Source: Escherichia phage cardinal
Reading direction: 5' to 3' (one strand)
Sequence record: PQ567651.1
Length of the DNA stretch: 64,000 bases
This document shows positions 18,722 through 48,356 of the stretch, piece by piece; the first letter of the stretch is position 1; each line of letters opens with the position of its first letter. Below the pieces are notes generated by a model. The model worked only from the letters and a program-made list of their open reading frames with translations, searched no databases and had not been told where the DNA came from. A program made the position numbers and the translations under genes.

Positions 18722-18722
18722 A

Positions 18723-27798: not shown

Positions 27799-27967
27799 AG
27801 GGGAAGAAAATGCTTACAGATGATGAATATAAAGCTATCCAAGAAAAACTAACGGAGCTTGAAATTCTTGCTGTCAATATTAAAGATCAATCACATGCTG
27901 GAAAGTTACTACATCAAGAGATCAATAAAATTAAGCAGATGATATTCTTTTGGACGGAGGATTAAAA

Positions 27968-30183: not shown

Positions 30184-30192
30184 GGAGAAAGT

Positions 30193-30399: not shown

Positions 30400-30426
30400 G
30401 AGAGGATTTTTATATGCGTAAAGTAA

Positions 30427-30663: not shown

Positions 30664-30740
30664 TTGACTTTCTTTAAAAACAGTTTATAGTATAAGACAT
30701 AGAGCGGAGGATTGTCCTCCGCATTAAAGAGGAGAAAAGA

Positions 30741-31718
30741 ATGCAACTGGGTTTCCCAATTATTGATGTGGTTGTTTTAGTGGGTATTTTAGTCTTGTCG
30801 ATTTGTATTGACTTCTTTGGACACAGAGAAAACAAAGAAATTTCATTTAAATCGGCAGTTGGTTGGTCAATTTTCTGGATTGGAGTATCATTAGCCTACT
30901 ATGGTTTTGTATACTTCCAACACGGTGCTGATTTTGCGAGCTTGTTCTTGAGTGGGTATGTGTTGGAGAAATCTCTTTCTGTAGATAACTTAGTAGTATT
31001 TGTGGCAGTATTCGCAAGTTTTGGTATTAAAAGCACACACTTGCAACACAAGATTCTACTTTGGGGTATTGCAGGTGCGATTGTCTTCCGAGGTGTGTTT
31101 GTAGCAGTAGGCACTTACTTGTTGAGTTTGGGCTGGTATGTTAATATCTTCTTCGGTGCTGTCATCCTTTTCTGTGCGGCTAAAATGGTATTCGCTGGAG
31201 ATAATGATGCAGAAGTTGATTACTCTAAACACTGGGCTACTCGCATTGTTCGTAAGCTGTTCCCTGTATCTGATCAGATGGATGGTGAGAAGTTCTTCAC
31301 AATCAAAAATGGTGTTCGTGTAGCAACTCCGGCTCTGGTTTGTGTGTTTGTAATGGAAATGGTTGACGTAATCTTTGCAGTAGACTCTGTTCCAGCAGTA
31401 ATTGCAGTGACACAAGAACCTCTGCTTGTATTTTCTTCGATGCTCTGTGCAATCTTAGGTTTACGTGCTCTGTTCTTTGTTCTTAGTGTTGCACTGAAGT
31501 ATTTGGTTCATCTGGAGAAAGCAGTTATCGTAGTCCTGGTATTTGTGGGTGCAAAACTGATGTATCATCCGTTTGCAGAAACTCTGCACGCAAAAATGAG
31601 TTTCCTGCCAGCACACATTGATCCGACGATCAGTATGTATATTGTGTTAGGTACTCTTGGGTTGGGTGTTGTTGCAAGTTTAATCTTCCCTGAAAAAGAA
31701 GATCAGACTGTTGCTTAA
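30741..31718 (+). CDS. TerC-family integral membrane protein
   Basis: Multiple transmembrane helices and both TerC signature repeats: LEKSLSVDNLVVFVAVF and MVDVIFAVDSVPAVIAVT. Confidence 0.75.
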   Translation: MQLGFPIIDVVVLVGILVLSICIDFFGHRENKEISFKSAVGWSIFWIGVSLAYYGFVYFQHGADFASLFLSGYVLEKSLSVDNLVVFVAVFASFGIKSTHLQHKILLWGIAGAIVFRGVFVAVGTYLLSLGWYVNIFFGAVILFCAAKMVFAGDNDAEVDYSKHWATRIVRKLFPVSDQMDGEKFFTIKNGVRVATPALVCVFVMEMVDVIFAVDSVPAVIAVTQEPLLVFSSMLCAILGLRALFFVLSVALKYLVHLEKAVIVVLVFVGAKLMYHPFAETLHAKMSFLPAHIDPTISMYIVLGTLGLGVVASLIFPEKEDQTVA

Positions 31719-31724
31719 TTCATT

Positions 31725-31746
31725 AAGCCCCTTCGGGGGCTTTGTT
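31725..31746 (+). terminator. intrinsic terminator
   Basis: agcccc-ttcg-ggggct followed by ttgttg. Confidence 0.5.
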
Positions 31747-31950
31747 GAGGTGATCTGATGGTGGTTTTACGTGTTCTTTGGATTCTGTTTGAAAATATTT
31801 GTTTTGCTCTAGGGTTGTTTTGTTTGATTTTTATCTTGACAACATATATTGATAACCATACAATTACTATCAACAGGAACGGAGAACAGATGTATTGTTT
31901 CTCTAGGGATTTTAAAAATTGTGTTGAGACTTTAAATGAGAGGGTTACAA

Positions 31951-32541
31951 ATGAAAAACATTAAATCTTTTATTGTTGCAGTTGTTTTAGGTAGTGCATT
32001 GCTGGTAGGTTGTGATGATTCTGAAAATGTACAAAATCAACGTTACCAACAAACACCAAATCAGATGGTAGATGAACAATATGTAAATCAGCCTGCACCT
32101 CAAGTTGTTCAAGCAGCACCTGCACAACCTTCAACAGTTGTTGTGCAAGGAGGCGGCAGTGGTTCTTCTGGCGTAGGTGAGTTTGCTACAGGTATGCTTC
32201 TTGGTCATATGTTGAGTGGTAATAGTGGCGGTGGTGGTTATAGAGATGGCGGTAGCAATACAACAATTATTAATAACAACGCTGCTCCTACAACTAACAG
32301 TAAAGCATATACAACACAAAAACATAGTTTTTATGATAAACAAGGGAATACATATACAACAACTAAACAAAACACAATTAAGCAGCAAAGTGTACAAACG
32401 TATTCACGCCCATCAACAACAAAAGTGAATAGTGATTACTCTGCTCGTAAGTCTTACTCAAGCCCTATTAGCTCTTATAGTAAGTCTTCGAAAAGTTATT
32501 CTTCGTCGAAACGTAGTTTTAGTAGCTCACGTCGTCGTTAA
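31951..32541 (+). CDS. lipoprotein with low-complexity S/T/N-rich C-terminal region
   Basis: Signal peptide with lipobox LLVGC; remainder rich in Q/S/T/G with SYS..SK repeats. Confidence 0.55.
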   Translation: MKNIKSFIVAVVLGSALLVGCDDSENVQNQRYQQTPNQMVDEQYVNQPAPQVVQAAPAQPSTVVVQGGGSGSSGVGEFATGMLLGHMLSGNSGGGGYRDGGSNTTIINNNAAPTTNSKAYTTQKHSFYDKQGNTYTTTKQNTIKQQSVQTYSRPSTTKVNSDYSARKSYSSPISSYSKSSKSYSSSKRSFSSSRRR

Positions 32542-32576
32542 TAATTTAATACAGATTAAATAAGAAGGAGAAACAG

Positions 32577-33428
32577 ATGAAACTAGAAGTTGGTAAAGTG
32601 TATCGCCTGGAAGGTTGGATCTTTAATCAAGAAATTCTTGAGAAGAATAAAGATGGTTTTGAGTTTGTTGGTACTACCAAAGAAAGTATGCACGATGACG
32701 AATACTGTAAATTCGTTGGTAAAAATACAGGTCAAGAACAATTTTGCTTTAAAAGCGCAATCGGTGATTATGCTTCTGTAATGCCAACACCAGAAAAGAC
32801 TTCGAAGCAATATACTGTCTTTGGTGTAAAACTTGAAGAACTTGTAGAACACCCACGTTTTGAAGAGTTCAAGGTTGCTGCAATGCGCAAGCATTCTGAA
32901 ATTAAAATACATAATTTGTTTGATTTAGAAGATCGGTTTGATATCTTTATGTATGATCGCAGGGAAAAGCATTTTGATGCAACGACTTCAAAATTTGCTG
33001 CAACAGAGGATATTAAAATCCTTGATGTTGATACCTTTCTTGAGAGTGTATCGTTTGTATTCATCCATAAATACAAGAAACGTAGTGATCATAAACGTGT
33101 GAAAGGAACTCCTCGTAAGAAACGTACTGTAAACAAAGCAACTTTGCACTTCACTTCTGGTGATAAATATACTCTCAAAGGGTTTGAAAGTGTTTTGTAT
33201 GATGCTGGAACGGGTAATATCAAGTTTATTATTAAGGCAACCTACAAAGGTACGGTATTGCACGAAGAGGCTGTTACACTACCTGTATTCGATATCTCTC
33301 GTGTTGAGGTACGGGGTGTTAAAGAGTCCTTCGATCTGGATTTCTTAACTGCTAATACCACGGGTTATGTTAATCTGGAAGCAGATGGAGCATTTATTAC
33401 TACAAATTATTTAGATATGTTTGTTTAA
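32577..33428 (+). CDS. hypothetical protein
   Basis: 283-aa ORF with AAGGAG RBS. Confidence 0.5.
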   Translation: MKLEVGKVYRLEGWIFNQEILEKNKDGFEFVGTTKESMHDDEYCKFVGKNTGQEQFCFKSAIGDYASVMPTPEKTSKQYTVFGVKLEELVEHPRFEEFKVAAMRKHSEIKIHNLFDLEDRFDIFMYDRREKHFDATTSKFAATEDIKILDVDTFLESVSFVFIHKYKKRSDHKRVKGTPRKKRTVNKATLHFTSGDKYTLKGFESVLYDAGTGNIKFIIKATYKGTVLHEEAVTLPVFDISRVEVRGVKESFDLDFLTANTTGYVNLEADGAFITTNYLDMFV

Positions 33429-33496
33429 TACTTAACTTGTGTTATGATGGTGGTACAGAGGTATCACCATTTACTAAAGAATATGGAGGAAATTGA

Positions 33497-34600
33497 ATGT
33501 CCAGTCCTTTTATCAGTGCCGTAAAAAGCAAACCGTCTGAAATGAGTGTATTCACGGCAACAACAGAAAAAAGTAAGTCTTTGTTTGCTCCAAGTGCTAT
33601 GGATGCAAGCCCTGTATATGCCCCTGCTGTTGCACGCCCTGTACAAATGCTGCCTCCAATGTCTCGTGAAGAGATTGAACAGGTTGGTGCTGATGCAGGA
33701 CTTACTCTTCGTAACCTTAATGCTGAAGTGCTTAAACACCAGCGTTCATCTCAGGGAGATGAAATGAGTGAACGTTTAACTGCGCTTATTAAGCAAGCAA
33801 AGCAACTTGATCCTAACTCTATTAAACAATCTAAAGGTTTAGGTAAACTAGTTAAGAAAGTTTTAGGTATGAAAGAAGATTTGTTTGGAGAATTTGACAC
33901 CATCAATAACCGTATTGAAGGTTTGGTAAAGACACTCCAAACAGACTTGAAAAAAGAAGAAGATTCTTTACGATATCTGCAACGTTTAGAGGAAGCTATT
34001 GCAAAATATGCTCTTAGCTTAAACAGGGATATAGAGCTTCTAACAGCTACTTATGAAAAAGAAGAAGTTCGCCTTAATACACTACCTGAAAATGAGGTAG
34101 AAGAGCGTCAACGTACTCGTGATACTATGGATCTGCTTGAAATTCGTATTGCAGACCTGAAAGCCTTACGCTTACTATGTGTTCAGATGGGGCCACGTGT
34201 ACAAAGTATGCAGAAAGTATCTGCAAGTTTGATGCGATCAGCCCGTAATATTGTGAATAATGTTATTCCTGCTTACTCTGCAAACTTTTCTATGTATATT
34301 GAAAGTCTACGCCAGAAGAAAGCAGCCGATACACAGAACAATGTACTGAATGAATTTAATGCTGCTATTGCAATGGGTAGTGATCTGGCTGCACAAAACC
34401 AGATTGAAGCTACACAACTTGCTAATCGTCAAGTATTGGATATTGAAACATTGCGTCGTGATCAAGAAAACTTAGTTAAAATGTTGGAAGAAACTAACCG
34501 AATCAACACTGAAGCCCGTGCTGCTCGTATTGATTACATTCAAGAAGTGCAGTCTCTTGAAGATGGTATGATTCAAACTGTTAAACGTGGTCTACTTTAA
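33497..34600 (+). CDS. TelA-like (toxic anion resistance / KlaB family) protein
   Basis: 367 aa, coiled-coil-rich; C-terminal blocks VIPAYSANFSMYIESLRQKKA, NEFNAAIAMGSDL and IDIETLRRDQENLVKMLEE match the TelA family pattern (assigned from memory). Confidence 0.55.
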   Translation: MSSPFISAVKSKPSEMSVFTATTEKSKSLFAPSAMDASPVYAPAVARPVQMLPPMSREEIEQVGADAGLTLRNLNAEVLKHQRSSQGDEMSERLTALIKQAKQLDPNSIKQSKGLGKLVKKVLGMKEDLFGEFDTINNRIEGLVKTLQTDLKKEEDSLRYLQRLEEAIAKYALSLNRDIELLTATYEKEEVRLNTLPENEVEERQRTRDTMDLLEIRIADLKALRLLCVQMGPRVQSMQKVSASLMRSARNIVNNVIPAYSANFSMYIESLRQKKAADTQNNVLNEFNAAIAMGSDLAAQNQIEATQLANRQVLDIETLRRDQENLVKMLEETNRINTEARAARIDYIQEVQSLEDGMIQTVKRGLL

Positions 34601-34613
34601 GGAGAAATATATT

Positions 34614-34820
34614 ATGAATATTAAAATTTACAAACTGTCTGGTTCTATGATTGCTGTTCAGTATGACAATGAAGATCGTTATGTTCTCCTCCAGGATGCT
34701 TGGTTAGATGATCCTAATGTATTCACTGTCCTGCGAGAACTACGTGCTGTCTATACCTATTCTTCTAAAGATGGTTTTGACAATTCAACAATGGAATTGG
34801 TAAAAGAGGAGAATGTGTAA
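34614..34820 (+). CDS. hypothetical small protein
   Basis: AAGGAG RBS then ATG (MNIKIYKL...). Confidence 0.4.
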   Translation: MNIKIYKLSGSMIAVQYDNEDRYVLLQDAWLDDPNVFTVLRELRAVYTYSSKDGFDNSTMELVKEENV

Positions 34821-35020
34821 TGAGTAAAGATATTCACTTAACTCGTGAAGAATTGCAAACCATTATGGAAGATGCTTTCATTGATGGTTGGAAACAAGGT
34901 CAAGAATCAGATTGGTATGATGCCGAAGATTTTTTGTATTATCATATGACTGCACCTGTAGACGAGCAAACACACTCTGAAACAACTTTGGCTTTAATTG
35001 ATCTTAAGGCTGGTGTATAA
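34820..35020 (+). CDS. hypothetical small acidic protein
   Basis: 66-aa ORF, translationally coupled. Confidence 0.4.
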   Translation: MSKDIHLTREELQTIMEDAFIDGWKQGQESDWYDAEDFLYYHMTAPVDEQTHSETTLALIDLKAGV

Positions 35021-35583
35021 TGGGGTGTTTTAGTTTCTTGTGCAAAGAGTCTGGTAATGCTGCTCTTTCTACCTCTTTCGATGGCTCTCCTTGCTACCTA
35101 TTTCTTTTGAAAGGTGGTAAGGTTGTCGAAGAGATGTATGGGAATTATGATAGCTATGGTAGTGTTTTCTCTAACGAAGAAGATAAACATGGCAATCGTA
35201 AAAGATTCAAGTGGTCTATGCCTTGGGAAGAAGTTTGTAATTTGATGTTCTCTTCCGATCTTGGAGATGGGATTGCTCTGGTATTAGAAGAGCACTTTAC
35301 AGGCGAGATCCCAACAGAAAGATCTGAAGAAGATCCTAACCAGGGTTGGGGTGATGGGGAAGAAGATCCAGATTGCTTCTTCAGCACTGAAAATAATAAA
35401 TTTAAACGTGTTGACAATCCTTACCACAAAGTGCATAATACTTGCATTGAGACAGAAGAAGACTCAAAGCTAGAAATTGAAGATGATTTAGTTGTAACTA
35501 TCTCTTTAAACGAGTTGCAAAAGATCACCAGAGAGGCTTTCTATTTAGGCTTGAGAGCAGGTAAAGGAGAAGACAGTGCTTAA
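35020..35583 (+). CDS. hypothetical protein
   Basis: 187-aa ORF, acidic. Confidence 0.45.
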   Translation: MGCFSFLCKESGNAALSTSFDGSPCYLFLLKGGKVVEEMYGNYDSYGSVFSNEEDKHGNRKRFKWSMPWEEVCNLMFSSDLGDGIALVLEEHFTGEIPTERSEEDPNQGWGDGEEDPDCFFSTENNKFKRVDNPYHKVHNTCIETEEDSKLEIEDDLVVTISLNELQKITREAFYLGLRAGKGEDSA

Positions 35584-35845
35584 ATTTAATATCAAAGACG
35601 ACAAATCAGATGAACCTAAATGTTTTGGAGAACTTGACGTAGGTGATACATTTGTATATTATGTTGCCTATCAAGATTCTGGTTTAGATACGTTCAGAAA
35701 CTTAGTGTTTATTAAAGTTAATACAAACCAAGCAATGTGTCTGAACGGTTCGCAAAGAGGTCAAATTAGCTGTATTTCGTATGATACAGAAATGGTAGAA
35801 GTGGATTTAGAAGTTACTAACATTACACTCAGAAAGGAGAAATAA
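35576..35845 (+). CDS. hypothetical protein
   Basis: 89-aa ORF. Confidence 0.4.
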   Translation: MLKFNIKDDKSDEPKCFGELDVGDTFVYYVAYQDSGLDTFRNLVFIKVNTNQAMCLNGSQRGQISCISYDTEMVEVDLEVTNITLRKEK

Positions 35846-35846
35846 T

Positions 35847-36640
35847 ATGTCCAATAAAATCAGTCTTAAAAAACGTCAAGAAACTCTTACCGTATCTCTG
35901 CGTAAGAAAAAGATTAACGATGTTGTTCTTCGTGTCGGTAGCGCCTTAGATATTTCGGGTAGTATGTGTGAGCTGTATCGTGATGGCACTGTTAGTGATT
36001 TTGTAGGTAAGCTGCTGCCGTTTGGTATGAAGTTTGATGATAATGCACAGATTGACATGTGGGCTTTCAATAGTTCTTCTTTTGAACTGCCTCCTGCAAC
36101 GGCTGATGTATATGATGATTATGTCGGCTCTTGTATGTCTAACGTTTGCATCAATGGTGGTACAGCTTATGCTCCAGTAATGCAAGAGATCTATGATACA
36201 TACTTCGGTAGTGTACCTATGAAAAATATTACACGCGAAGTCGTTGAGTATGAAGAAGTTCCGGCTAAGGGTTTCCTTGCTAAACTAACTGGTAAAAAGA
36301 ACTTGTAGAAGTAACACGTACTGTTGTAGAACAGGTTGTAGATACTGATGCACAAGTTGATCGTACTCCTGCAATGATTTTCTTCCAAACTGACGGGGAG
36401 AACATGGATACTTCAGCAGTACGTAGCTTACTGAACAAACACCGCAATACGCCTGTTTACTGGTTTATGGTTGGTGTAGGTAATGCAAACTTTAAATTCC
36501 TGAAAGACTTGGCAAAGGAATACGATAATGTTGACTTTATCGGTATTGCAGATTTGTCCTTGTCTGATGAAGAACTTTACGATAAACTGTTATCCGAAGA
36601 GTTTGGTGAGTGGGTTAAAAAATTTGGAGCAAAAGCGTAA
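35847..36640 (+). CDS. vWA-domain protein (TerY-like), reading frame interrupted by a -1 shift near 36291-36300
   Basis: MIDAS motif DISGSM in frame 0 (35847..36308); the vWA domain continues as IFFQTDGENMD in the -1 frame (36296..36640); junction at ggT AAA AAG. Confidence 0.55.
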
Positions 36641-36712
36641 AAAACGCTTGACTTTGTAGAAAAGATTAGTAAAATAGACAACGTAAATTAACAACAAAGG
36701 AGATAATAAATT

Positions 36713-37309
36713 ATGACTCAGAAAATTTCCCTGAAAAAAGGTTCTAGCGAAAAAGTTTCTCTGAAAAAGATCGCACCAGCACTGAAACGCATTCGTCTGG
36801 AATTCTCTTGGAAATCTAACGAAAAACTGGATCTGGATGTTAGTGCTCTGATTTGCCGACACAATGCATCTGGTCTGCCGGAACTGTTGTCTCCTCGTCA
36901 CCTGGTGTGCTACGCGCAGAAATTTGATCCTGAACGTTCTACTTTTGCAGGTGAAGATGTTCGTGATGGTGTAGGACAGATGGAGCAGATCGATGTTACT
37001 CTGGATAATATCTCTGCTGAAGCACAGGAAATTGCATTCGTAATTACTATTGATGACGAAACGGGTAAGAAACGCCTTGGTCACGCTACCGAAGGTTTCC
37101 TTAAAATCTTCGATGATGAACGTAACGTTGAACTGCTGGATTTTGACTTCTTGGCTCCAGAACTTGCAGGTAATACCATTTGCCACGTTGCCTCCCTGGT
37201 GCGGGAAGATAATGAATGGAAACTGAAAGCATATGGTGTAGGTAAAGCTGGACTTGACATTTATGATGTAGTTAAAGCGTTTGGCGCTGGTGACGATTGG
37301 TTCGAGTAA
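36713..37309 (+). CDS. TerD-domain protein
   Basis: ISLKKG...VSLKK...LEFSWKS...LDLDVSALI...GEDVRDGVG..EQIDV...IAFVITI....FDFLAPELAGNT matches TerD/TerZ family blocks. Confidence 0.75.
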   Translation: MTQKISLKKGSSEKVSLKKIAPALKRIRLEFSWKSNEKLDLDVSALICRHNASGLPELLSPRHLVCYAQKFDPERSTFAGEDVRDGVGQMEQIDVTLDNISAEAQEIAFVITIDDETGKKRLGHATEGFLKIFDDERNVELLDFDFLAPELAGNTICHVASLVREDNEWKLKAYGVGKAGLDIYDVVKAFGAGDDWFE

Positions 37310-38056: not shown

Positions 38057-38566
38057 TTGTCAATAAAAACCTTTGTCGCAATTGCGTTACTATCCTTAAC
38101 TGCTTTTACATTTACACCTGTTGTGGCGCAAGCCGAAGCTGCAAACGTAAAAACTGCTAAAGTAGTTCACAAGTGTACAAAGCGTGATAGTAAAGAAAAT
38201 CTATTAGCTTGTGCAATCTATGCAGAAAGTCGTAATCAAGGAAAGCGCGGTATGTCTGCTGTTGGTAATGTAGTATTGAATAGGGCTAGAGATTCATATT
38301 TCCCTGATACTATAAAAGAAGTTTTGTTTCAAAAAGGACAATTCTCTTACACAAAGACATTCAACGTTATGGAACGTGATAAGTGGAAAGACGCTAAAGC
38401 TATAGCAGAACGTCTACTTTATCTCGATAACCATTTTCCAGAATTACGAATTGCATTAGATATTACAAAAGGAGCATTATACTTTAAAAAATCTACAATA
38501 AGAGCACACTGGGAAAAAGATATGGTTCTAGTGTACCGCTACAAAGAACATCAATTCTATCGCTAA
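38057..38566 (+). CDS. SleB-like cell wall hydrolase (Hydrolase_2 family) with signal peptide
   Basis: Signal peptide MSIKTFVAIALLSLTAFTFTPVVAQA; LACAIYAESRNQGKRGMSAVGNVVLNRA matches the cell wall hydrolase signature; TTG start after AGGAGG. Confidence 0.6.
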   Translation: MSIKTFVAIALLSLTAFTFTPVVAQAEAANVKTAKVVHKCTKRDSKENLLACAIYAESRNQGKRGMSAVGNVVLNRARDSYFPDTIKEVLFQKGQFSYTKTFNVMERDKWKDAKAIAERLLYLDNHFPELRIALDITKGALYFKKSTIRAHWEKDMVLVYRYKEHQFYR

Positions 38567-38855: not shown

Positions 38856-39085
38856 TGGCTGATGTTATTGAAGTTAACTTTAAAACAAAAAAGAAAGTTG
38901 ATAAGTATACAATCTTAAAAAATATTTGCGTTGTGTGCTTCAATTCTGTAATATATGACTCACGTAAGGGCGAAAATGAAAATGAACCTTACATCCAGAT
39001 TTCTAAAGGTAAAGGGCAGTGTATCTGCAAAAACTGTGCTGTAGCAATTAAGGAGGTTGTAGATGAAAACCATTGGGATCAATGA
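38855..39085 (+). CDS. hypothetical zinc-ribbon protein
   Basis: CVVCF ... CICKNC cysteine pairs; ATG overlaps the upstream stop. Confidence 0.4.
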   Translation: MADVIEVNFKTKKKVDKYTILKNICVVCFNSVIYDSRKGENENEPYIQISKGKGQCICKNCAVAIKEVVDENHWDQ

Positions 39086-39257
39086 TACTGGTGAAGTTGT
39101 AAAGTCTTGGGATGATCTTAGTGGTATCCCTACAGATAAACTGATTAAACTGCGTGATGTTTGTCGTGATCATCTTAATGAAACATATAAAGAGTATATG
39201 GAAGCACGAGATCACAGTTTAGCTATCCAGATGGAACTCGCAAAACGTAATCAATAG
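39063..39257 (+). CDS. hypothetical small protein
   Basis: 64-aa ORF. Confidence 0.4.
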   Translation: MKTIGINDTGEVVKSWDDLSGIPTDKLIKLRDVCRDHLNETYKEYMEARDHSLAIQMELAKRNQ

Positions 39258-39314
39258 GTAAAACCATTTGGACTTTTTAGTCTAAAAATGCTAAAGTAAT
39301 AATACGGAGGGAGT

Positions 39315-39878
39315 ATGATATTTCACATAACTCCCTATCTTTCTGGAGATATTGGAAAAGGTATCAATGACACAATAAGTGTCTTACCAGAAGATAGTTG
39401 GATTTGCCTAAGAGACATTGATACAATGTTTCTTCTTCCAGAACAACCTGCTTGGTTGGAATCAATAGTCCGTTCAAATCCTGATTTTGATGTTCTTGGT
39501 GCATCTTGTAATAGATTGGGATCAACATATCAATTATTTAATAATGAAAGAAGTGAAGATCCAAATATATTACACCACATTGAGATTGCAAAAAGAGCAC
39601 ATCTAGAATGGGGAAACTCAATAGAGGAAGTACCTACAGATGCTATCTTAGCAGGATTCTTTCTTCTCTTTCGTAAGAGTCTGTGGAATGAAATCCCTTT
39701 TGAGGAAAGATCAATACAGTTTGATATAATTTTCTCTAAAGCATTACACGCTAACAATAAAAGGCTAGGTTTATTACGTGGGCTATATTTATTTCACACA
39801 TACCGTTTAGGTAGTGATGATCCTAGGAAAGCTGTTTCACACCTTTTACATTGTCAAGACATGAATAAAATTATTTAA
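39315..39878 (+). CDS. putative glycosyltransferase-like protein
   Basis: 187 aa with D.D-like CLRDIDTMF; first gene of a four-gene cassette; weak assignment. Confidence 0.3.
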   Translation: MIFHITPYLSGDIGKGINDTISVLPEDSWICLRDIDTMFLLPEQPAWLESIVRSNPDFDVLGASCNRLGSTYQLFNNERSEDPNILHHIEIAKRAHLEWGNSIEEVPTDAILAGFFLLFRKSLWNEIPFEERSIQFDIIFSKALHANNKRLGLLRGLYLFHTYRLGSDDPRKAVSHLLHCQDMNKII

Positions 39879-39887
39879 GGAGTTATT

Positions 39888-40574
39888 TTGGAAAATACAA
39901 AAATTGGTGTTGGTGTTATTACTGTAGGTAAGCGTCCTCTTAAAGATTATCTTGTGACTGATCCTAATGCTACTTTTGTTGTACAGTATGATCGGGAACG
40001 AAAAGGTGTTGCATATGCCCGTAATGAACTGATGAAAAAGTTTTATGATGAAGGGTATGATTACTGGTTTATTTTTGATGATGATTGTTATCCGGTTGTG
40101 CCAGGTTGGGAAACATATTTTGTAAAACAGGCTAAGGAAAATGGTTGGGATTTCTTTGGTATGCCTGAATACTTTAAAGATAAAGTAAAAGGTATTGAAG
40201 GTGAAGTGGTTATTTGGGAACTAGGTATGTGCCAGTTTGGTATGTATTCCCGTGCAGTTATTGAGAAAGCTGGCTATTTCCGTTCATACACCCACGGTTA
40301 TGGATATGAAGATGCAGAGTGGATTCAGCGCGTTCCACTGGCAGGTTTGAACCGAGGTATTCTCGGCGTACCATGTCCTATTCGAATTATGGCGTTTATC
40401 CATCCTGACGATGTGTTTGGAGATAATCCTTTACCTTTTGCGAATCTGTCAAAAGAAGAGAAAGAACAGGGGATTGGTGTAAACTGGGAACAATATAAAC
40501 AATCACTGGAGGATCTTCGCAATGGTAAAACTTTTATCTCTTATGAGGAGGCTCAAAAATATGGTAAGTCCTAA
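39888..40574 (+). CDS. putative GT-A-fold glycosyltransferase
   Basis: DxD motif in YDYWFIFDDDCYPV preceded by a nucleotide-binding-like N-terminus; YGYEDAEW block. Confidence 0.5.
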   Translation: MENTKIGVGVITVGKRPLKDYLVTDPNATFVVQYDRERKGVAYARNELMKKFYDEGYDYWFIFDDDCYPVVPGWETYFVKQAKENGWDFFGMPEYFKDKVKGIEGEVVIWELGMCQFGMYSRAVIEKAGYFRSYTHGYGYEDAEWIQRVPLAGLNRGILGVPCPIRIMAFIHPDDVFGDNPLPFANLSKEEKEQGIGVNWEQYKQSLEDLRNGKTFISYEEAQKYGKS

Positions 40575-41535
40575 TACTCCTGTACTTAAGTGTGATAATA
40601 AGTTAGGCAGTGGTTGTGATTACCATCGTATTGTAATGCCGTTTGCGGGAAATACATTTAAACCTAAGAAAGACGTTTTGGTTTTTAATAGAGTGTATTC
40701 TCGTGGATCAGACGAGGTTAAACGCCTGAAGGCACAAGGTGTTAAGATTATTGTTGACTTAGATGACTTTTATTCACTTAACCCTGAACATTATATGGCT
40801 GGCGTATTTACTAATCACTCAAAGACTATTGTAGAGATGATTAAGTTAGCAGATGTTGTTACTGTAACAACAGAATATCTAGCTTACAAAATTCGTCATT
40901 TAAACCGTAATGTTGTCGTTATTAGAAACGCACTGCCTTACGACGAAGGTCAATTTACTTTGACAAAAGACCGTTATTCTGACACGCCTATTATTTGGGC
41001 TGGAGGAGCAAGCCATGAGCCTGACTTATCTCTTGTAGCTAATACATTTGATGATACACTATTGACAATTGCAGGGTATGAAGTGTATCCTTCTGCACCT
41101 GTTGGAAATAATAGTCAGTATCTAACTACTGCGGAGTGGGTTAAAGTAAAACGTAAAATTCCAAATGCACAGTATAAACCAGCTATTAAAAATTTAGGTG
41201 AGTATATGTCTGTGTATGACGGTCACAGTATTGCAATTGCTCCTCTGGTAGATAACGACTTCAACAACTGTAAAAGTAATTTGAAGATTTTGGAAGCAGG
41301 TGCAAAGGGTCTTCCTATTATCTGTTCTCCTGTGCTGCCGTACTTCAATCCGGTAGATGCAAAGGCTGTTATCTATGCAGACTCTAAAGCATCTTGGCAT
41401 TATGAAGTTGTCAAGCTAATGAGAAACCCTAGATACACAGAAGATCGTGGTATGATGCTTGCAGAACACGTTCGTCTTAATTATAATCTTGCAGATGCCA
41501 ATGAACTGCGTCGTCAAGTTATTGAAAGTCTTTAA
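40561..41535 (+). CDS. putative GT-B-fold glycosyltransferase (tandem paralog 1)
   Basis: C-terminal KSNLKILEAGAKGLPIICSP resembles the GT1/GT4 EAmA.G.PvV block; paralogous to the next gene. Confidence 0.45.
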   Translation: MVSPNTPVLKCDNKLGSGCDYHRIVMPFAGNTFKPKKDVLVFNRVYSRGSDEVKRLKAQGVKIIVDLDDFYSLNPEHYMAGVFTNHSKTIVEMIKLADVVTVTTEYLAYKIRHLNRNVVVIRNALPYDEGQFTLTKDRYSDTPIIWAGGASHEPDLSLVANTFDDTLLTIAGYEVYPSAPVGNNSQYLTTAEWVKVKRKIPNAQYKPAIKNLGEYMSVYDGHSIAIAPLVDNDFNNCKSNLKILEAGAKGLPIICSPVLPYFNPVDAKAVIYADSKASWHYEVVKLMRNPRYTEDRGMMLAEHVRLNYNLADANELRRQVIESL

Positions 41536-41546
41536 TAAGGAGCGAT

Positions 41547-42491
41547 ATGCCTAATATTATTCTTGACACACGTGGGCATGAGAGGTATAGTGTATGTGAT
41601 TTTCATAGAATCATTTTGCCATATAAACGCAAACTGACCATTAATCCTAAGCATAATATTTTTGTGTTTAATGGAGTACCAACCCGTGGAAAGCCAGGTT
41701 TCCTGGCTCTTAAACAACTTGGGTTTAAATTGGTAATGGATCTGGATGATTCTTTAATTATTCCTGAAGGGCATATGCTGGAAGGATTATTTGAAAATCA
41801 AATCCGAGATGACCTAAAATGGTTCCTTGAAAGAAGCGATCTTGTAACTACAACAACTCCGGCATTAAAGGTTGAACTAAGCCAATACAATGATAATGTA
41901 CATATTGTGCCTAACGGACTACCTTTTGATGAAGGACAGTTTGTTCTTACTAAAGATCGTTATTCTAAAAGTCCACTGGTTTGGGCGGGAAGTGAAACAC
42001 ATAAACATGATTTAGCAATTCTTCCTGATTTTGGTAAAGATTTAACTTTATGTGGATTTCGTAGAGATCACGAAGAGTTAAGTAGTGCTCAATGGTTGCA
42101 AATTAAAGAAAATATTCAACCAGATTGTGTTTATGAAGGTATTCGTCCTTATGAGTGTTATATGGAAGCATACGATGGTCATCAAATCTCCATAGCTCCA
42201 TTAGTAAATAATCATTTTAATAATGCCAAAAGTAATTTAAAAATTCTTGAAGCTGGTGCTAAAGGTTTGCCACTCGTTTGTTCGCCACGAGAGAACTATT
42301 ATACTGAAGAATTTAAAGATCTAATCTTCTTTGCTGATTCAGTTAAAGAGTGGAAAGATATTGTAGAATACTTAATCGAATCCCCTGATGTTTGTATTGA
42401 GAAAGGATTGGCTCTTGCTAAGTATGTAAGAGATAACTACAATATTGATGATTTAAATGAAACCCGCAGACTGCTTATCGAGGATTTATAA
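41547..42491 (+). CDS. putative GT-B-fold glycosyltransferase (tandem paralog 2)
   Basis: Shares CD(Y/F)HRI, DLDD, LTKDRYS, WAG, DGH.I(A/S)IAPLV.N.FNN.KSNLKILEAGAKGLP blocks with 40561..41535. Confidence 0.45.
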   Translation: MPNIILDTRGHERYSVCDFHRIILPYKRKLTINPKHNIFVFNGVPTRGKPGFLALKQLGFKLVMDLDDSLIIPEGHMLEGLFENQIRDDLKWFLERSDLVTTTTPALKVELSQYNDNVHIVPNGLPFDEGQFVLTKDRYSKSPLVWAGSETHKHDLAILPDFGKDLTLCGFRRDHEELSSAQWLQIKENIQPDCVYEGIRPYECYMEAYDGHQISIAPLVNNHFNNAKSNLKILEAGAKGLPLVCSPRENYYTEEFKDLIFFADSVKEWKDIVEYLIESPDVCIEKGLALAKYVRDNYNIDDLNETRRLLIEDL

Positions 42492-42760
42492 TGCACACTT
42501 TTGATTTTGAGTATAAACAAGATAATAAAGAACCTATTATTGTTGAAGTAGATTACTATTATGAAGAACCTAACCCTTTCTCACGAGAAAGTGATTGGGA
42601 TTATTATGGTGGTCTTATTGTTGATGGTATTAGGTTTTATTCTGGTACAAAAGACCTTTTTGATATAGATATTTCCCCATCGGAAATTGTTTACCAATTT
42701 AAGAAACATATGGAAGATTTGGAAATGCAATATATTATGGAGACAAACGAATCATTTTAG
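42491..42760 (+). CDS. hypothetical protein
   Basis: 89-aa ORF. Confidence 0.4.
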   Translation: MHTFDFEYKQDNKEPIIVEVDYYYEEPNPFSRESDWDYYGGLIVDGIRFYSGTKDLFDIDISPSEIVYQFKKHMEDLEMQYIMETNESF

Positions 42761-42772
42761 TAGGAGAATCCT

Positions 42773-44545
42773 GTGTCTTATGTTGTAAATAAATATGGGT
42801 ATAACATTGATCTAAGTCAAGAAGGACATACTGGGTGTCCTCGTTGTATGAAAGGAGGGCGTGATCGATCACAAAACAATTTGATGGTATATGGCTTAGA
42901 TGCCGATGAAGACCATCGAGGCGCACATTGTTTTTCTTGTGGCTTTACTATCCCTGATCAAAAATGGTTAAATGCACACGGCGAAGAAATTGAAGAGGAG
43001 GATATCTTGGGTAGTGAGTTTAATCCAGAAGTACATGATAAACTAAAAGCCAGCACTGGAACTAATCCAAAAGGTTATCGCGGTATTCGTGAAGATATCT
43101 CTAAGCCTTTCGGTGTACGTTATATGTACGATGAAGCTACTGGCGAAGTAATTTCAACACTATACCCTACAACTAAAGATTACAATATTGCTGGGTATAA
43201 ACAACGTATCGATCCAAAAGATTTCTCACATCCTATAGGTGAAACAGGAAAGGATTGTGATCTTTTTGGGGAGTTTAAATATCGTAACCACAGCGGTACT
43301 ATTCTAATCGTTGGTGGTGAACACGATATGCTGGCTGCAACACAGATGCTAAAAGATTATAACAAGGGTGGTAAATATCCTGTTCCTGCTGTAGTATCTG
43401 GTACTTGTGGCGAAACATCTCTGCATAAGCAGCTTCAACATCGTTATAAATTCTTAGATCAATTTAAAAAGATTGTTCTATGTATGGATAATGATGAAGC
43501 TGGACGTGCAGCAGTTGAGAAATGTGTTAAAATCTTACCACGTAATAAAGTTTACGTGATGGAACTAACGGATGTTAAAGATCCTAACCAGGCACTAGTA
43601 GAAGGAAAAATTGATCATTTTATTGATCGCTTTTTCAAAGCTAAACTGTACACACCTGCTGGTGTTTACGCTTCTAACGTACTATATGAAGCAGCCTTGG
43701 AATGCCTGGAAGCTAAAATGATCACCCTTCCTCCATTCATGCGTGTTGCTTCTAACATGTTAGGTGGAGGCTTGGTAGAAGAAGAAATTACTGTTATACT
43801 TGCAAAAACAAGTATCGGTAAAACACTGTTGGTTAACGAGATTACGAAGCACATTATTCTTGCACACCCAGAACATACTCTTGGTATTTTATCTTTGGAG
43901 GCAACGTATAAGAAGTATTCTCGTAACTTACTGTCTTCATTCTTGCACATCCCTCTTCACCGTAAAACAAAAGAAGAGAAGGAAAAGATTTTAAAAGATA
44001 ATGAAGAAAAGATTCGTGATTTTTACGAACGAGAAGATGGAACACCACGTTTCTATGTTTGTGATGATCGTGGAGCTAACGTAGATGTGATTAAAGAGAA
44101 GGTTCTGGAAATGATTATTTATTTCGGAGTAACCATTCTTGTTATCGACCCTTATTCTGACTTGCTTTCTGGTATGGACGTGTCACAACAAGAGGAACTT
44201 GCGACGTGGCTCAAACGCATTATGAAAGAGTACGCAATTACCATTGTTGTAATTTCACACGTTAAAAAGTCTTCTAACAATAGTAATGAACATATTGTAG
44301 AAGATGATGCAATGGGTAGTAGCTTCCTTGCTAAAGGTGCTGGTATCACAATTGCGCTGGAGCGTGATAAACAAGCTGAAGATCCTATGGAACGTAACCG
44401 CACATATTGCTACATTCTAAAGAACCGTGAGTTCTCAGAGACTGGTGCAGCAGGTAGTTTCTTCTATGAGATTAAAACAGCGACACTTCACGATTACGAT
44501 CAATACACAAGTAACCCAGAGAATATTCCTGATGGTTCTTATTAA
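42773..44545 (+). CDS. T7 gp4-like bifunctional primase-helicase
   Basis: N-terminal zinc finger CPRC...CFSC, central TOPRIM-like region (ILIVGGEHDMLA, CMDNDEAG), C-terminal DnaB-like helicase with Walker A AKTSIGKT. Confidence 0.8.
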   Translation: MSYVVNKYGYNIDLSQEGHTGCPRCMKGGRDRSQNNLMVYGLDADEDHRGAHCFSCGFTIPDQKWLNAHGEEIEEEDILGSEFNPEVHDKLKASTGTNPKGYRGIREDISKPFGVRYMYDEATGEVISTLYPTTKDYNIAGYKQRIDPKDFSHPIGETGKDCDLFGEFKYRNHSGTILIVGGEHDMLAATQMLKDYNKGGKYPVPAVVSGTCGETSLHKQLQHRYKFLDQFKKIVLCMDNDEAGRAAVEKCVKILPRNKVYVMELTDVKDPNQALVEGKIDHFIDRFFKAKLYTPAGVYASNVLYEAALECLEAKMITLPPFMRVASNMLGGGLVEEEITVILAKTSIGKTLLVNEITKHIILAHPEHTLGILSLEATYKKYSRNLLSSFLHIPLHRKTKEEKEKILKDNEEKIRDFYEREDGTPRFYVCDDRGANVDVIKEKVLEMIIYFGVTILVIDPYSDLLSGMDVSQQEELATWLKRIMKEYAITIVVISHVKKSSNNSNEHIVEDDAMGSSFLAKGAGITIALERDKQAEDPMERNRTYCYILKNREFSETGAAGSFFYEIKTATLHDYDQYTSNPENIPDGSY

Positions 44546-45041: not shown

Positions 45042-48000
45042 ATGGGAGCTTTTACTTTCGACATTGAAAGTAACAACTTGCTTAATGACGAAAGTGTAGA
45101 TTACTTGGCAAGTCCATATCGTTTAAAAGATAGTTTTGCAATGCACTGTATTGTGTGCGAAAGTCATGAGACTGGAGAGATTATTGCTTTCCATGATGGT
45201 GATAAATATCTTTTCGATGGTCGTCCGTATATTGAGACTGACGGAAAGTATGAATACCGACTGGAGGAATATGAGCATTTAGAATATACCCATTTCCCTC
45301 TTAAAGATTTTCCTGATTTTGTAAATGGAACAGGTAAATTTAAAGGTAATTCAAACTATAAAATTACCAAAGTAGTTGGACATAACATCATTAACTTTGA
45401 CTTACTGGCAATTAAATTATTTTTTAAACTCAACTACAGTATTAAGTACAATACTTGGGGTAATAGTAACATTGAAATTTGTGATACTATGATCTTAAGT
45501 AAGACACTAAACCCTGATCGCTTCGGTGGTCATAGTCTGGCAGAGTTATCTAAGAAAGCTGGAGGGGATGTTAAAATTGATTTTAGAAAAAACATCCCTG
45601 AAACTGAAAGATTTAAAACATTTGCAGCAGATATGCTGTATTACTGTATTTACGATAACAAAGCTAACACCGCAGTGTTCCGTTATTTGATGGAAGAGTG
45701 GGGTGATTATAATAAGTGGTCTGAACCATTTAACTTAGAACAACGTGTAGCTGATATTATTACACGTCAAGAGCACCGTGGCTTTGCTTTCAATATGAAG
45801 CAAGCAGAAGATAATATTCGTGATCTGGATGCTCGAATGGAAGCATGTCGTTTAGAGGCAGAACCTGTGCTACCTCCTAAACCTGCTACTAAAGGTTATT
45901 TGAAATCATTCATTCCACCTAAACTACAGTTTAAAAAGAATGGTGAACCTTCAAGTAACATGATAAAGTTTGCAGAGAAACATTCTGGTGAACTTGTACA
46001 AAAAGAAGATGGTTGGTGGTTATTTGCATTAGGTAAAGAGTTTAAACTGCCTATTCCAGCAGAAGAACCTATTTGTGATCCTACAGTACCTGCTACTTTA
46101 GACGACACTACACATATTAAAAATTGGTTAGTTGGTTTAGGTTGGAGTCCATCTGAATATAAAGATAAAGATATCACTCTTAAATCTGGCACTAAGATTA
46201 AGAAAGATGAAGCACAAATGGAGAAAGCTATTCGTGACTATGTTGATCAAACGTTAGCATCTAACTTCTGCCAGGACAGATGTGATCATCTGGAGTGCAC
46301 ACCAGAAACTTTGGAATGGAAACTAAGAGATCGTATTGCTAAAGCTAAAGGTCGTGGTGTTAAAGTGCTTACTAACCCTTCCTTTACAAAAGGGCAAGAG
46401 AAAGATATTTGTCCTAATTTGGAAGCACTAGGTGAAAAGTTTCCTTATGCTACGCAGATTGTGCAGTATCTTACGTATAAACACCGTAGGAACTCTATTC
46501 TAGGGGGTGGTGCTGATTGGGAAGAAGATGAAGAGGATTACGATAAAGGTTATCTGGCAGCAGTAAGGGCTGATGGTCGTATACCAACCCCTGCTGCAAC
46601 GTGTGATGCAGCTACGTCTCGTATGAAACATAGGTTAGTAGCAAATATCCCACGTGTAACATCTCTGTACGGATATGAAATGCGTAATTTATTTGGTGTA
46701 GAAGTTCCAAAATACTTCCAAATTGGTTATGACTTTGATTCTCTTGAGGCAAAAATAGAATCACACTACTGTGTACCTATGGATGCACAAGCACTAACCC
46801 GTAAAGGTTGGGTTGGTTATCACGATCTACAAGAAGGGGATGAAATCTTAGGATATAACCCAGAAACAGGACTTAAAGAATGGACTAAAGTAAAAGGTAA
46901 GGTCTTCTATAAAAATAGTAAGACGTTTGAGATTAAAGGGAAATCACACACTTACCGTGCAACAGCAGATCACCGTTGGTATGTTAATACCCGTAGTAAA
47001 GGGAATACTTATGTGCCTAAAGTCAGAACAACTGCCGAGCTTTGCACAGGAGATAATATTATTTGTAATGCTCCATTTAACATGGAACAAGATCAGGTAA
47101 ATAGTTTAACTTCTGTTCAACAAGGTAAATGGGATGTTCCGTGGGTAGAGCGTGTAGTTAATATGTCTCATGCCGAGCGTGTGGCTTTCTTGGAAGGTTT
47201 TTTGATTGCGGATGGTTACTGGCATGAACATAAACAAAAACCTGTTTGGCGTTGGGCGCAGAACCCAGGTGAACTTTTTGAAGCAGCTTTAACTGCCTCG
47301 TACCTGGTGCATGGAGGCAATATCTCTGTAGCTTTCAATACAAAAGAGCAGAAAGTAAAAGTGGCAACATTGGCTAACCGCTCTCACATTCCTGTTCAAA
47401 GTTTGACTATTGAAGAGTGGGGTGTAGAGGATGTTTGGTGTCCACAAACAGAACTTGGTACGTGGGTCATGCGTCAGAAAGACTGCATTACCATCACAGG
47501 AAACTGTTGGCGGTACGAGCAGGAACCACACGAATATTGTAATGCTCTATTATTGGAAAAACCTAATGATGTTCATACAATGATGGCTCGACGTATTTCT
47601 GACACTATTGGTCGTAAGTTTGAACGAAGCCCTGCTAAATCTGTTAAGTATGGTATTACTTATGGTGCTCAAGCTGCAAAAGTAGCAAAAACTATAGGTA
47701 GTGATATGTATACAGGACAGCTTGTATACGATGCTTTCTGGGAAGCTGCAAAACCTCTTGCGCTTCTTAAAGAACGTCTGCATGATTTTTGGGTTAAAAC
47801 AGGTAAGAAATACATTCTTGGTATTGATGGTAGGAAAGTACCTACACGATCTGCACACGCAATACTTAACTCTCTGTTCCAGAGTGGTGGTGTTATTTGT
47901 GCAAAAAGAGCAATGGTTATCTACGACGATCTTATCGAAGAAGAAGGATTAGCTGTTGACTTTTTTGTTGATGACTGGAAAAATAAGTCATTCGTTCAAC

Positions 48001-48356
48001 AAATGATTGCATATCACGATGAAGCACAGCTTGAAGTAACTCGTGATCTGGTGCATTTTAAATGGTTCTCTAAAGAATCTTTAGGTTGGACTCAAGTTGA
48101 TGATCCAGAGGAACAAAAGAAAATTGATAAAGAATGTTTGGATAAAGTTAATGCCTGGAAAGAAGAGGAAGAGAAGCGTACTGGCAAGATTTGGGCTAAC
48201 GTACATGAATCTCCAAAAGGTGGTTGGTTTACAGCCTACAGTCGTGCTGGAGAATTAGCATCTATTGCTGTTAATAAAGCTGGTGAGTATTACAATCTTA
48301 ATGTACCTCTCACTGCTGGATACGATGTTGGTAGTTCATGGTCAACTTGTCACTGA
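45042..48356 (+). CDS. family A (Pol I/T7-like) DNA polymerase containing an intein
   Basis: N-terminal 3'-5' exonuclease motif FDIESNNL; motif A region GYDFDSLEAKIESHY | intein | CWRYEQ...; downstream AKSVKYGITYGAQAAKVAKTIG aligns with T7 Pol AKTFIYGFLYGAGDEKIG. Confidence 0.85.
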   Translation: MGAFTFDIESNNLLNDESVDYLASPYRLKDSFAMHCIVCESHETGEIIAFHDGDKYLFDGRPYIETDGKYEYRLEEYEHLEYTHFPLKDFPDFVNGTGKFKGNSNYKITKVVGHNIINFDLLAIKLFFKLNYSIKYNTWGNSNIEICDTMILSKTLNPDRFGGHSLAELSKKAGGDVKIDFRKNIPETERFKTFAADMLYYCIYDNKANTAVFRYLMEEWGDYNKWSEPFNLEQRVADIITRQEHRGFAFNMKQAEDNIRDLDARMEACRLEAEPVLPPKPATKGYLKSFIPPKLQFKKNGEPSSNMIKFAEKHSGELVQKEDGWWLFALGKEFKLPIPAEEPICDPTVPATLDDTTHIKNWLVGLGWSPSEYKDKDITLKSGTKIKKDEAQMEKAIRDYVDQTLASNFCQDRCDHLECTPETLEWKLRDRIAKAKGRGVKVLTNPSFTKGQEKDICPNLEALGEKFPYATQIVQYLTYKHRRNSILGGGADWEEDEEDYDKGYLAAVRADGRIPTPAATCDAATSRMKHRLVANIPRVTSLYGYEMRNLFGVEVPKYFQIGYDFDSLEAKIESHYCVPMDAQALTRKGWVGYHDLQEGDEILGYNPETGLKEWTKVKGKVFYKNSKTFEIKGKSHTYRATADHRWYVNTRSKGNTYVPKVRTTAELCTGDNIICNAPFNMEQDQVNSLTSVQQGKWDVPWVERVVNMSHAERVAFLEGFLIADGYWHEHKQKPVWRWAQNPGELFEAALTASYLVHGGNISVAFNTKEQKVKVATLANRSHIPVQSLTIEEWGVEDVWCPQTELGTWVMRQKDCITITGNCWRYEQEPHEYCNALLLEKPNDVHTMMARRISDTIGRKFERSPAKSVKYGITYGAQAAKVAKTIGSDMYTGQLVYDAFWEAAKPLALLKERLHDFWVKTGKKYILGIDGRKVPTRSAHAILNSLFQSGGVICAKRAMVIYDDLIEEEGLAVDFFVDDWKNKSFVQQMIAYHDEAQLEVTRDLVHFKWFSKESLGWTQVDDPEEQKKIDKECLDKVNAWKEEEEKRTGKIWANVHESPKGGWFTAYSRAGELASIAVNKAGEYYNLNVPLTAGYDVGSSWSTCH
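46770..47504 (+). mobile_element. intein (245 aa) with LAGLIDADG-like endonuclease motif in DNA polymerase
   Basis: Starts CVPMDAQALT, ends ...ITITGN with +1 Cys; internal VAFLEGFLIADGYW resembles a LAGLIDADG motif. Confidence 0.65.

Follow-up and report, generated by a model that had tools for sequence, protein, structure and literature searches.

The closest described counterparts of the four glycosyltransferase (GT) genes at positions 39315 to 42491 of Escherichia phage cardinal (PQ567651.1; the 64,000-nucleotide stretch analyzed is called the window below) are gp166 to gp163 of phage phi92 and their orthologues in Justusliebigvirus and Phapecoctavirus; these are the same genes, and nothing material differs between them. 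The phi92 GenBank record describes gp166 as a "predicted glycosyl-transferase fold," gp165 as a "polypeptide N-acetyl-galactosaminyl-transferase 2 fold," gp164 as a "GT-B fold," and gp163 as a "trehalose-synthase TRET fold," and the annotation of the BASEL phages gives "putative glycosyltransferase" for two of the genes and "putative disaccharide synthase" for the other two. The cassette is already known, being annotated in more than 140 public genomes, and speculation that it rhamnosylates DNA is already in print: Olsen et al. noted a complete deoxythymidine diphosphate (dTDP)-rhamnose pathway and suggested rhamnosylation of hydroxymethylated nucleotides (PMC7552041), Maffei et al. described phi92-like phages as being without restriction-modification (RM) protection "despite a putative dTDP glycosylation machinery" (PMC8594841), and a later paper mentions "rhamnose modification in Stephanstirmvirinae" while also noting RM sensitivity (PMC10844046). 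We found no experimental work on the cassette genes in the literature on Justusliebigvirus, Phapecoctavirus, Stephanstirmvirinae, and phi92. Here, we argue that the acceptor of the cassette enzymes is very probably something other than bulk DNA, and we tentatively propose that it is a virion protein.

Two groups of viruses with glycosylated particles offer further comparisons. For Che8, glycosylation of the virions by phage GTs is reported in the accounts of Freeman et al. 2023 that are given in PMC12363180 and PMC11256854. As in the mycobacteriophage virion glycosylation genes (Che8 gp108-110 and Corndog gp38), several phage-encoded soluble GTs are clustered here, and open reading frame 2 (ORF2) of the cassette is homologous to the cluster F mycobacteriophage GT Boomer gp102; unlike that system, the cassette belongs to a phage of a Gram-negative host and is located in the replication block. 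Glycans have been demonstrated on giant-virus capsids or fibrils, and the synthesis of rhamnose is virus encoded in mimivirus, although giant viruses use uridine diphosphate (UDP)-rhamnose, not dTDP-rhamnose. The likeness of the cassette to PBCV-1 A64R and to mimivirus R655 and R699 lies at the level of the generic GT-A fold only (7 to 9% identity), and PBCV-1 and mimivirus, unlike the cassette phage, have eukaryotic hosts.

Judged by its sequence, the source of the window is a phi92-like virulent Escherichia coli myovirus of approximately 146 kb, belonging to the genus Justusliebigvirus in the subfamily Stephanstirmvirinae. Megablast of positions 39000 to 43000 matched 56 phage records, and in 52 of these the match extends over 80% or more of the query; 55 records show 95 to 99% identity (about 98%), and the remaining one shows 90 to 95%. 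Among them are phi92, the BASEL phages Bas60 to Bas62 (e.g., EmilieFrey, MZ501063), and VEcB, which are Justusliebigvirus members. Complete annotated genomes of close relatives, in particular EmilieFrey, which is 98% identical, served as a proxy for the parts of the genome that lie outside the window. Four records named "Campylobacter phage" with Campylobacter jejuni as host (MG065639, MG065645, MG065656, and MG065689) are 98.3% identical to the phi92-like E. coli phages in this region, and their genomes are of similar length (~146 kb); mislabeling or contamination would appear to be the explanation.

The cassette consists of the following genes:

39315-39878, + strand: ORF1, 187 amino acids, small GT-A-fold glycosyltransferase, orthologue of phi92 gp166
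39888-40574, + strand: ORF2, 228 amino acids, GT-A-fold glycosyltransferase, orthologue of phi92 gp165
40561-41535, + strand: ORF3, 324 amino acids, predicted GT-B-type (GT4-like) glycosyltransferase, orthologue of phi92 gp164 and paralogue of ORF4
41547-42491, + strand: ORF4, 314 amino acids, predicted GT-B-type (GT4-like) glycosyltransferase, orthologue of phi92 gp163

The longest frame of ORF3 runs from 40522 to 41535 (337 amino acids); the ATG at 40561 is the more likely start, because AGGAGG lies 9 nucleotides upstream of it and phi92 gp164 is annotated from the same methionine. All four proteins are nucleotide-sugar glycosyltransferases. Each matches a PHROG annotated as "glycosyltransferase," ORF1 matching phrog_14179 (E = 1.5e-112), ORF2 matching phrog_2456 (E = 1.2e-78), and ORF3 and ORF4 both matching phrog_7162 (E = 3.7e-149 and 1.4e-145, respectively). 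ORF1 and ORF2 were each predicted to adopt a single Rossmann-like GT-A fold, and both carry the conserved acidic DxD motif that binds metal and nucleotide, located after the fourth strand: in ORF1, D34 and D36 of a D34-x-D36 motif are invariant in 35 sequences, and in ORF2, D64-D65-D66 of an FDDD motif (residues 63 to 66) are invariant in 18 sequences. ORF3 and ORF4 are paralogues (41% identity, E = 7e-83) and are assigned to the GT-B type, GT4-like, by Pfam and the phi92 annotation; ORF4 matches Glyco_trans_1_2 (PF13524) at 26.8 bits, over the 25-bit gathering score, and the matches of ORF3 to Glyco_trans_1_4 and Glyco_trans_1_2 are weak (14.7 bits, under the Pfam threshold). The sequence-only reading that preceded this analysis, which had described four glycosyltransferase genes at these positions, two of them GT-A-like and two of them tandem GT-B-like paralogues, was therefore correct on both the genes and their types.

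Curated families and known structures were less specific. In NCBIfam, ORF1, ORF2, and ORF4 had no family at E ≤ 1 and ORF3 had only an irrelevant 11.7-bit match, and searching PDB chains with the sequences of ORF1, ORF2, and ORF4 yielded nothing meaningful. In a PDB search with the GT-B family profile, the only GT4 matches were weak and fell within the C-terminal nucleotide-sugar domain (TreT, E ~0.01; MshA-like proteins; and PglA); the top match, a designed repeat protein, was discarded as spurious. Fold comparison of the GT-A proteins returned GlfT2, K4 chondroitin polymerase (K4CP), ppGalNAc-T1, the prophage-encoded TarP, TarS, the Listeria rhamnosyltransferase RmlT, SpsA in its dTDP complex, PBCV-1 A64R, and mimivirus R655 and R699. 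These neighbors are transferases for polysaccharide, teichoic acid, and glycoprotein, and PBCV-1 A64R glycosylates a viral capsid protein. Viral fold neighbors were GT2/GT25-like proteins of phages and giant viruses, and a named DNA glucosyltransferase was absent among the matches, in a viral-structure search that returned many unnamed entries and was poorly discriminating. The maximum hydropathy over 19 residues is ≤1.2 in all four proteins, and the enzymes are predicted to be soluble and cytoplasmic. The isoelectric points of ORF1, ORF2, and ORF4 are 5.1 to 5.6; protein charge as an argument against DNA binding was dropped, since the T4 α-glucosyltransferase is itself acidic (pI 6.1).

The sequence-only reading had suggested that such a cassette could carry out multistep hypermodification of DNA, as in T4, a reading that is not supported: we found no hydroxymethylase and no homology to the T4 enzymes, and relatives of the phage are susceptible to RM. 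The T4 α- and β-glucosyltransferases (a-gt and b-gt) are GT-B-fold enzymes. Like the cassette, they are phage GTs near replication genes; b-gt immediately adjoins gene 42 (dCMP hydroxymethylase), near the genes for dCTPase, primase, and helicase, and is placed among uvsX, gene 41, and gene 43. The location of the cassette beside the primase-helicase and polymerase genes resembles this setting and speaks for a DNA acceptor, but nothing comparable to the neighboring hydroxymethylase is present here, whether adjacent or distant. T4 gp42 had no tblastn match in either the window or the complete EmilieFrey genome (best E = 8), the annotated "thymidylate synthase" of EmilieFrey is ThyX-like and not of the ThyA family, and a Pfam scan of 30 larger unannotated proteins from the window and the rest of the genome found no TET/JBP protein, 2-oxoglutarate-dependent oxygenase, or hydroxymethylase. 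Among those 30 proteins are a MazG-like pyrophosphohydrolase and an NT5C-like nucleotidase, both of them belonging to general nucleotide metabolism; the dTDP-rhamnose (rml) genes also adjoin nucleotide metabolism genes, a further point in favor of DNA. When the GT-B family profile was aligned with b-gt and a-gt by using hhalign, the probabilities were 0.2% and 3.4%, respectively, with no relationship detected, and T-even phages were absent from the results of a tblastn search of ORF4 against 50,697 phage records.

Like the TET-associated glycosyltransferases (TAGT; PF20691), ORF2 is a small GT-A protein with a DxD motif, and it matches the Pfam TAGT profile weakly (E = 6.7e-5, at 23.3 bits, under the 27.5-bit gathering threshold), with a match that covers only profile positions 37 to 96 (60 of 205), the nucleotide-binding N-terminal part. 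It also weakly matches phrog_842, "beta-glucosyl-HMC-alpha-glucosyltransferase" (E = 5.2e-5), over a span of 41 residues. Both matches point toward DNA, as does a Dcm-like C5-methyltransferase in EmilieFrey, the only C5-methyltransferase there, which could in principle seed 5-methylcytosine and then 5-hydroxymethylcytosine. Unlike in TAGT systems, this methyltransferase lies ~60 kb from the cassette, and no TET/JBP partner was found in the 30 scanned proteins.

Published infection data bear directly on the state of the DNA. The phi92-like phages Bas60 to Bas62, together with Vequintavirinae, are "exceptionally" sensitive to a set of six RM systems in which types I, II, and III are represented by two systems apiece, whereas T-even phages with glycosylated hydroxymethylcytosine show no or very weak sensitivity in the same panel (PMC8594841). 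In other published data, Bas61 and Bas62 are targeted by ARMADA II and Stephanstirmvirinae are targeted by Druantia III; the published conclusion is that both systems most likely recognize unmodified DNA, because the modifications of T4 abolish Druantia III defense. The RM sensitivity rules out bulk modification of cytosine or thymine, yet it is compatible with rare, motif-specific modification, and the panel used would miss modification that is site specific. Motif-specific modification is disfavored solely because no oxygenase was found among the 30 scanned proteins. Taken with the enzyme searches, these data make it very probable that the acceptor is something other than bulk DNA.

We propose that the cassette, with its two GT-A enzymes of the DxD type and its pair of paralogous, GT4-like GT-B enzymes, is an oligosaccharide assembly line. 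The enzymes would act in succession, drawing on dTDP-rhamnose made by the phage and on UDP-sugars of the host, and would assemble a short glycan on an acceptor other than DNA. That acceptor may be a structural protein of the phage, or several (from the capsid, tail, or fibers), in which case the result would be glycosylated virions with altered surface properties, e.g., in antibody recognition, stability, or adhesion. A virion protein specifically is the most likely acceptor of the candidates considered, although we would give it somewhat less than an even chance. That Stephanstirmvirinae as a group glycosylate their virion proteins with their own dTDP-rhamnose, the candidates being capsid or decoration proteins and the collagen-domain tail fiber, is possible and on balance doubtful. 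We favor a virion protein because of the gene context of homologues, which tells us more than any other line of evidence, the giant-virus precedent of rhamnose synthesis combined with GTs, and the link to mycobacteriophages.

In this window, the GT genes do not lie with structural or packaging genes but in the replication block; in unrelated phages, by contrast, homologues lie inside or directly beside packaging and head genes in six of nine contexts, usually together with sugar-tailoring enzymes. The six are Cellulophaga phage phi18:2, Streptomyces phage KimJongPhill, and the loci that we label L006, L021, L022, and L025. At L006, an ORF1-like gene lies between the terminase and portal/capsid genes with genes for a UDP-galactopyranose mutase, a GT2, a polysaccharide deacetylase, and two Methyltransf_24 proteins. 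In phi18:2, gp39, an ORF1-like domain fused to a second domain, is found next to a Methyltransf_24 gene between the portal and the major capsid protein. In KimJongPhill, gp6, a homologue of the GT-B enzymes, is accompanied by a UDP-glucose dehydrogenase and a methyltransferase immediately 5' of the terminase, and L021 has a Glyco_transf_7C-like GT-A and a GT-B homologue at the head of an operon of small terminase, terminase, portal, protease, and capsid genes. Two further contexts are glycan clusters of ~10 kb with a DegT aminotransferase, epimerases, GT-D-like, TOD1/MUCI70, Stealth, and radical-SAM proteins, and an O-methyltransferase; the aminotransferases, epimerases, O-methyltransferases, and Stealth proteins represent chemistry that is usual for glycoconjugates rather than for DNA bases. 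The homology of ORF2 to Boomer gp102 is to its N-terminal domain (E = 3e-13, local tblastn), and GTs similar to ORF2 occur in 341 records of Mycobacterium phages, for the most part of the Che8/Boomer type. The gene context of the distant homologues thus favors virion protein glycosylation, which the sequence-only reading had not considered. The binomial tail for six of nine contexts is 0.01 at an assumed background of 25% and 0.10 at 40%; we regard the tally as suggestive, not decisive, because accessory genes gather near terminase genes in small phages.

Several points weigh against a virion protein as the acceptor. The same gathering of accessory genes may have inflated the context tally, which is sensitive to the background chosen, and the cassette itself is in the replication block, not with the late structural genes. 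Glycans on phi92-type virions are not reported in the literature that we searched. No significant match to Che8 gp108-110 was obtained by hhalign or tblastn, the hhalign comparisons with single sequences being uninformative or negative, and Boomer gp102, through which ORF2 is linked to mycobacteriophages, is an uncharacterized cluster F GT. Acceptors cannot be read from GT folds, and for this reason computation does not settle the acceptor. Finally, the rml genes and the cassette are both core genes of the subfamily, and hence their association is not independent evidence.

The sugar supply is complete in the proxy genome: rmlA, rmlB, rmlC, and rmlD, which make up the entire dTDP-L-rhamnose pathway, are all present in EmilieFrey. 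The spread of rmlD is approximately that of the cassette, covering about the same ~140 Escherichia and Klebsiella phage records, and the cassette and rmlABCD are core genes of Stephanstirmvirinae. The same four genes are found in the same order and position in both genera, with amino acid identities of ~98 to 100% for the Justusliebigvirus orthologues and 66 to 78% for those of Phapecoctavirus. One Klebsiella member of the subfamily has a single GT-B gene rather than two, and in L005, L010, and L026, more distant Stephanstirmvirinae-like relatives from metagenomes that share the layout, the cassette itself includes a gene for a nucleotide-sugar epimerase/dehydratase. Such variation in content is typical of the diversification of glycan structures.

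The first alternative is remodeling of host envelope glycans, related to the modification of host surface polysaccharide that the sequence-only reading had offered as its second option. The soluble GTs would work on the inner membrane from its cytoplasmic side, where their substrates would be lipid-linked intermediates such as lipid A-core, enterobacterial common antigen (ECA), or O-antigen units; side groups containing rhamnose would then hide the receptors of the phage itself, and superinfection or the loss of progeny to cell debris would be reduced. Several fold neighbors do act on lipid-linked or wall polymers (TarP, TarS, RmlT, PglA, GlfT2, and K4CP), and surface glycans and the lipopolysaccharide (LPS) core are receptors of these phages (PMC8594841). 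The cassette differs from Gtr-type seroconversion systems in the low hydropathy of its products and in the genes around it, as no GtrA flippase or GtrB- or GtrC-like membrane component was found flanking it; the hydropathy result is, however, compatible with action on lipid-linked acceptors, as for peripheral LPS core GTs such as WaaG, which likewise are without transmembrane segments. No curated NCBIfam family for LPS, O-antigen, or ECA was matched. The phage seroconversion systems that are known come from temperate phages, in which the lysogen gains from them, and a strictly lytic phage would have little time to exchange the surface glycan already in place; the homologues in small phages, moreover, lie among head and packaging genes, not among lysogeny or moron genes. 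We consider envelope remodeling unlikely, though a serious rival to a virion protein acceptor.

A second alternative is another soluble acceptor, the product being a free disaccharide or a glycosylated small molecule, RNA, or host protein with a role in host takeover; it could be linked to the neighboring Ter, PRTase, HAD, and macrodomain genes. The best sequence-level PDB match of the GT-B family is TreT, in keeping with the "TreT fold" and "putative disaccharide synthase" of the annotators, but this similarity is so weak and so restricted to the nucleotide-sugar domain that it is silent on the acceptor. A Ter module with PRTase_3, HAD, and macrodomain genes lies just upstream of the cassette, and the same Ter genes precede the cassette in L008 and L026, two relatives from metagenomes; they are absent, however, from the contexts of the small-phage homologues. 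A Burkholderia GT-B homologue adjoins a gene for an invasin-like adhesin, a further point in favor of this alternative. Four transferases of two folds would suggest stepwise building of a glycan rather than a single small product, and we judge a soluble acceptor of this kind to be rather improbable. The remaining alternative, that rhamnose or other sugars are placed on hydroxylated bases, possibly at specific motifs and as an antirestriction measure, as proposed in PMC7552041 and repeated in PMC10844046, is very unlikely given that neither the gp42 search nor the scan of 30 proteins found an enzyme for the acceptor hydroxyl, given the RM, Druantia III, and ARMADA II data, and given that distant homologues share their clusters with genes commonly seen in glycan synthesis, such as those for aminotransferases, deacetylases, and O-methyltransferases.

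The sequence-only reading had put the cassette directly upstream of the primase-helicase; the position is nearly right, but an ORF of 89 amino acids (42491 to 42760) intervenes between the cassette and the primase-helicase gene (42773 to 44545; DnaB_C and Toprim_2 domains in Pfam). The DNA methyltransferase that it had noted at 50554 to 51285 is borne out by a Pfam N6_N4_Mtase match (E = 1.9e-30). The product of the 89-amino-acid gene is homologous to gp007 of the rV5-like phage PVP-SE1 (E = 8e-10), which is located upstream of the primase-helicase and polymerase genes with no GTs nearby. For the upstream gene of 64 amino acids, no PVP-SE1 homologue was detected at E < 1e-3, and Vequintavirinae were absent from all three cassette searches. 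This pattern fits, and half supports, an accessory module placed in a shared replication backbone, as opposed to a functional part of replication. Promoter-like sites are not enriched between 37900 and 45100 (32, versus 26 ± 4 expected), and the scan of the same interval found no terminator on the + strand; the four genes are probably cotranscribed, also with their neighbors, because the junctions are short or overlapping and there is no such terminator.

Upstream of the cassette, a stress module of the tellurite resistance (Ter) type extends from 27950 to 37309 on the + strand, with genes that start as follows:

27950, + strand: HAD hydrolase
28617, + strand: PRTase_3 ComF-like protein
29350, + strand: macrodomain protein
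30741, + strand: TerC
33497, + strand: TelA
35847, + strand: vWA-TerF
36713, + strand: TerD

This gene set resembles the Ter-linked neighborhoods for a "nucleoside-like metabolite" that Anantharaman, Iyer, and Aravind reportedly proposed in 2012. The vWA-TerF-like gene is split into two ORFs (35847 to 36308 and 36374 to 36640, both on the + strand), which correspond to profile positions 3 to 98 and 108 to 195, respectively; it is a single gene of 795 nucleotides in EmilieFrey and phi92 (gp173), and the split marks a frameshift pseudogene or else an error in the sequencing of this genome. Between the Ter module and the cassette, in the replication/accessory block, is a gene for a SleB-type cell wall hydrolase (38057 to 38566, + strand; Pfam Hydrolase_2, E = 7e-20) with an apparent N-terminal signal peptide (MSIKTFVAIALLSLTAFTFTPVVAQAEA), which is separate from the endolysin annotated elsewhere in the genome.

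Three genes of the window appear to carry intervening elements. The coding sequence of nrdD (anaerobic ribonucleotide reductase) is divided between ORFs at 23833 to 24699 and 24941 to 25912 (+ strand), which abut at position 263 of the Pfam NRDD profile, and a group I intron is found in the gap at 24645 to 24920 (+ strand; Rfam RF00028, 72.3 bits versus a 50-bit gathering score, E = 1.6e-18); nrdD of EmilieFrey is uninterrupted, at 1,830 nucleotides. A UvrD/Rep-type helicase (18684 to 21497, + strand) is 937 amino acids long, versus 578 in EmilieFrey, and has an intein with Intein_splicing and Hint domains at residues ~267 to 613, between the N- and C-terminal helicase domains. The family A DNA polymerase (45042 to 48356, + strand) is 1,104 amino acids long, versus 859 in EmilieFrey; the extra ~245 residues start at a cysteine ("HYCVPMDAQALTRKGW...") and finish with "...ITITGNC," and a LAGLIDADG-like "LEGFLIADGYW" lies between. 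From these features, the insert looks like an intein; a Pfam scan of the polymerase at E ≤ 1e-4 gave DNA_pol_A only. Klebsiella phage KP13-16 also has a long polymerase gene, of 3,327 nucleotides.

On the - strand, positions 8788 to 10185 encode a protein of 465 amino acids with five CapR homology domains (E = 8.6e-50) and a T5orf172 (GIY-YIG-like) domain, probably a mobile gene of the homing endonuclease type; no gene of that size is annotated in the corresponding region of EmilieFrey, where the nearest is a hypothetical protein of 325 amino acids. Genes related to NAD and ADP-ribose are concentrated in the window and in the relative EmilieFrey. The window contains a NADAR protein (8332 to 8787, - strand; E = 9e-30) and the macrodomain protein of the Ter module (29350 to 30183, + strand), and EmilieFrey encodes a sirtuin, a nicotinamide phosphoribosyltransferase, and a phosphoribosyl pyrophosphate synthetase between 104 and 142 kb; this concentration suggests countermeasures against NAD-depleting or ADP-ribosylating defenses.

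The phi92-like and phAPEC8-like phages are among the coliphages with the broadest host ranges and are present in many therapeutic and biocontrol collections. They spend eight conserved genes (rmlABCD and the four GTs) on sugar chemistry. The drift of the literature toward "rhamnose modification" of DNA (PMC10844046) is speculation, and the failure to find its prerequisites directs attention to a glycoconjugate instead. If host glycans were modified, the cassette would represent a new strategy of superinfection exclusion or receptor masking in a lytic phage. If virion proteins are glycosylated, this would be the first such system described in phages of Gram-negative bacteria, and it would have a bearing on antibody neutralization, immunogenicity, pharmacokinetics, mucus adherence, and particle stability.

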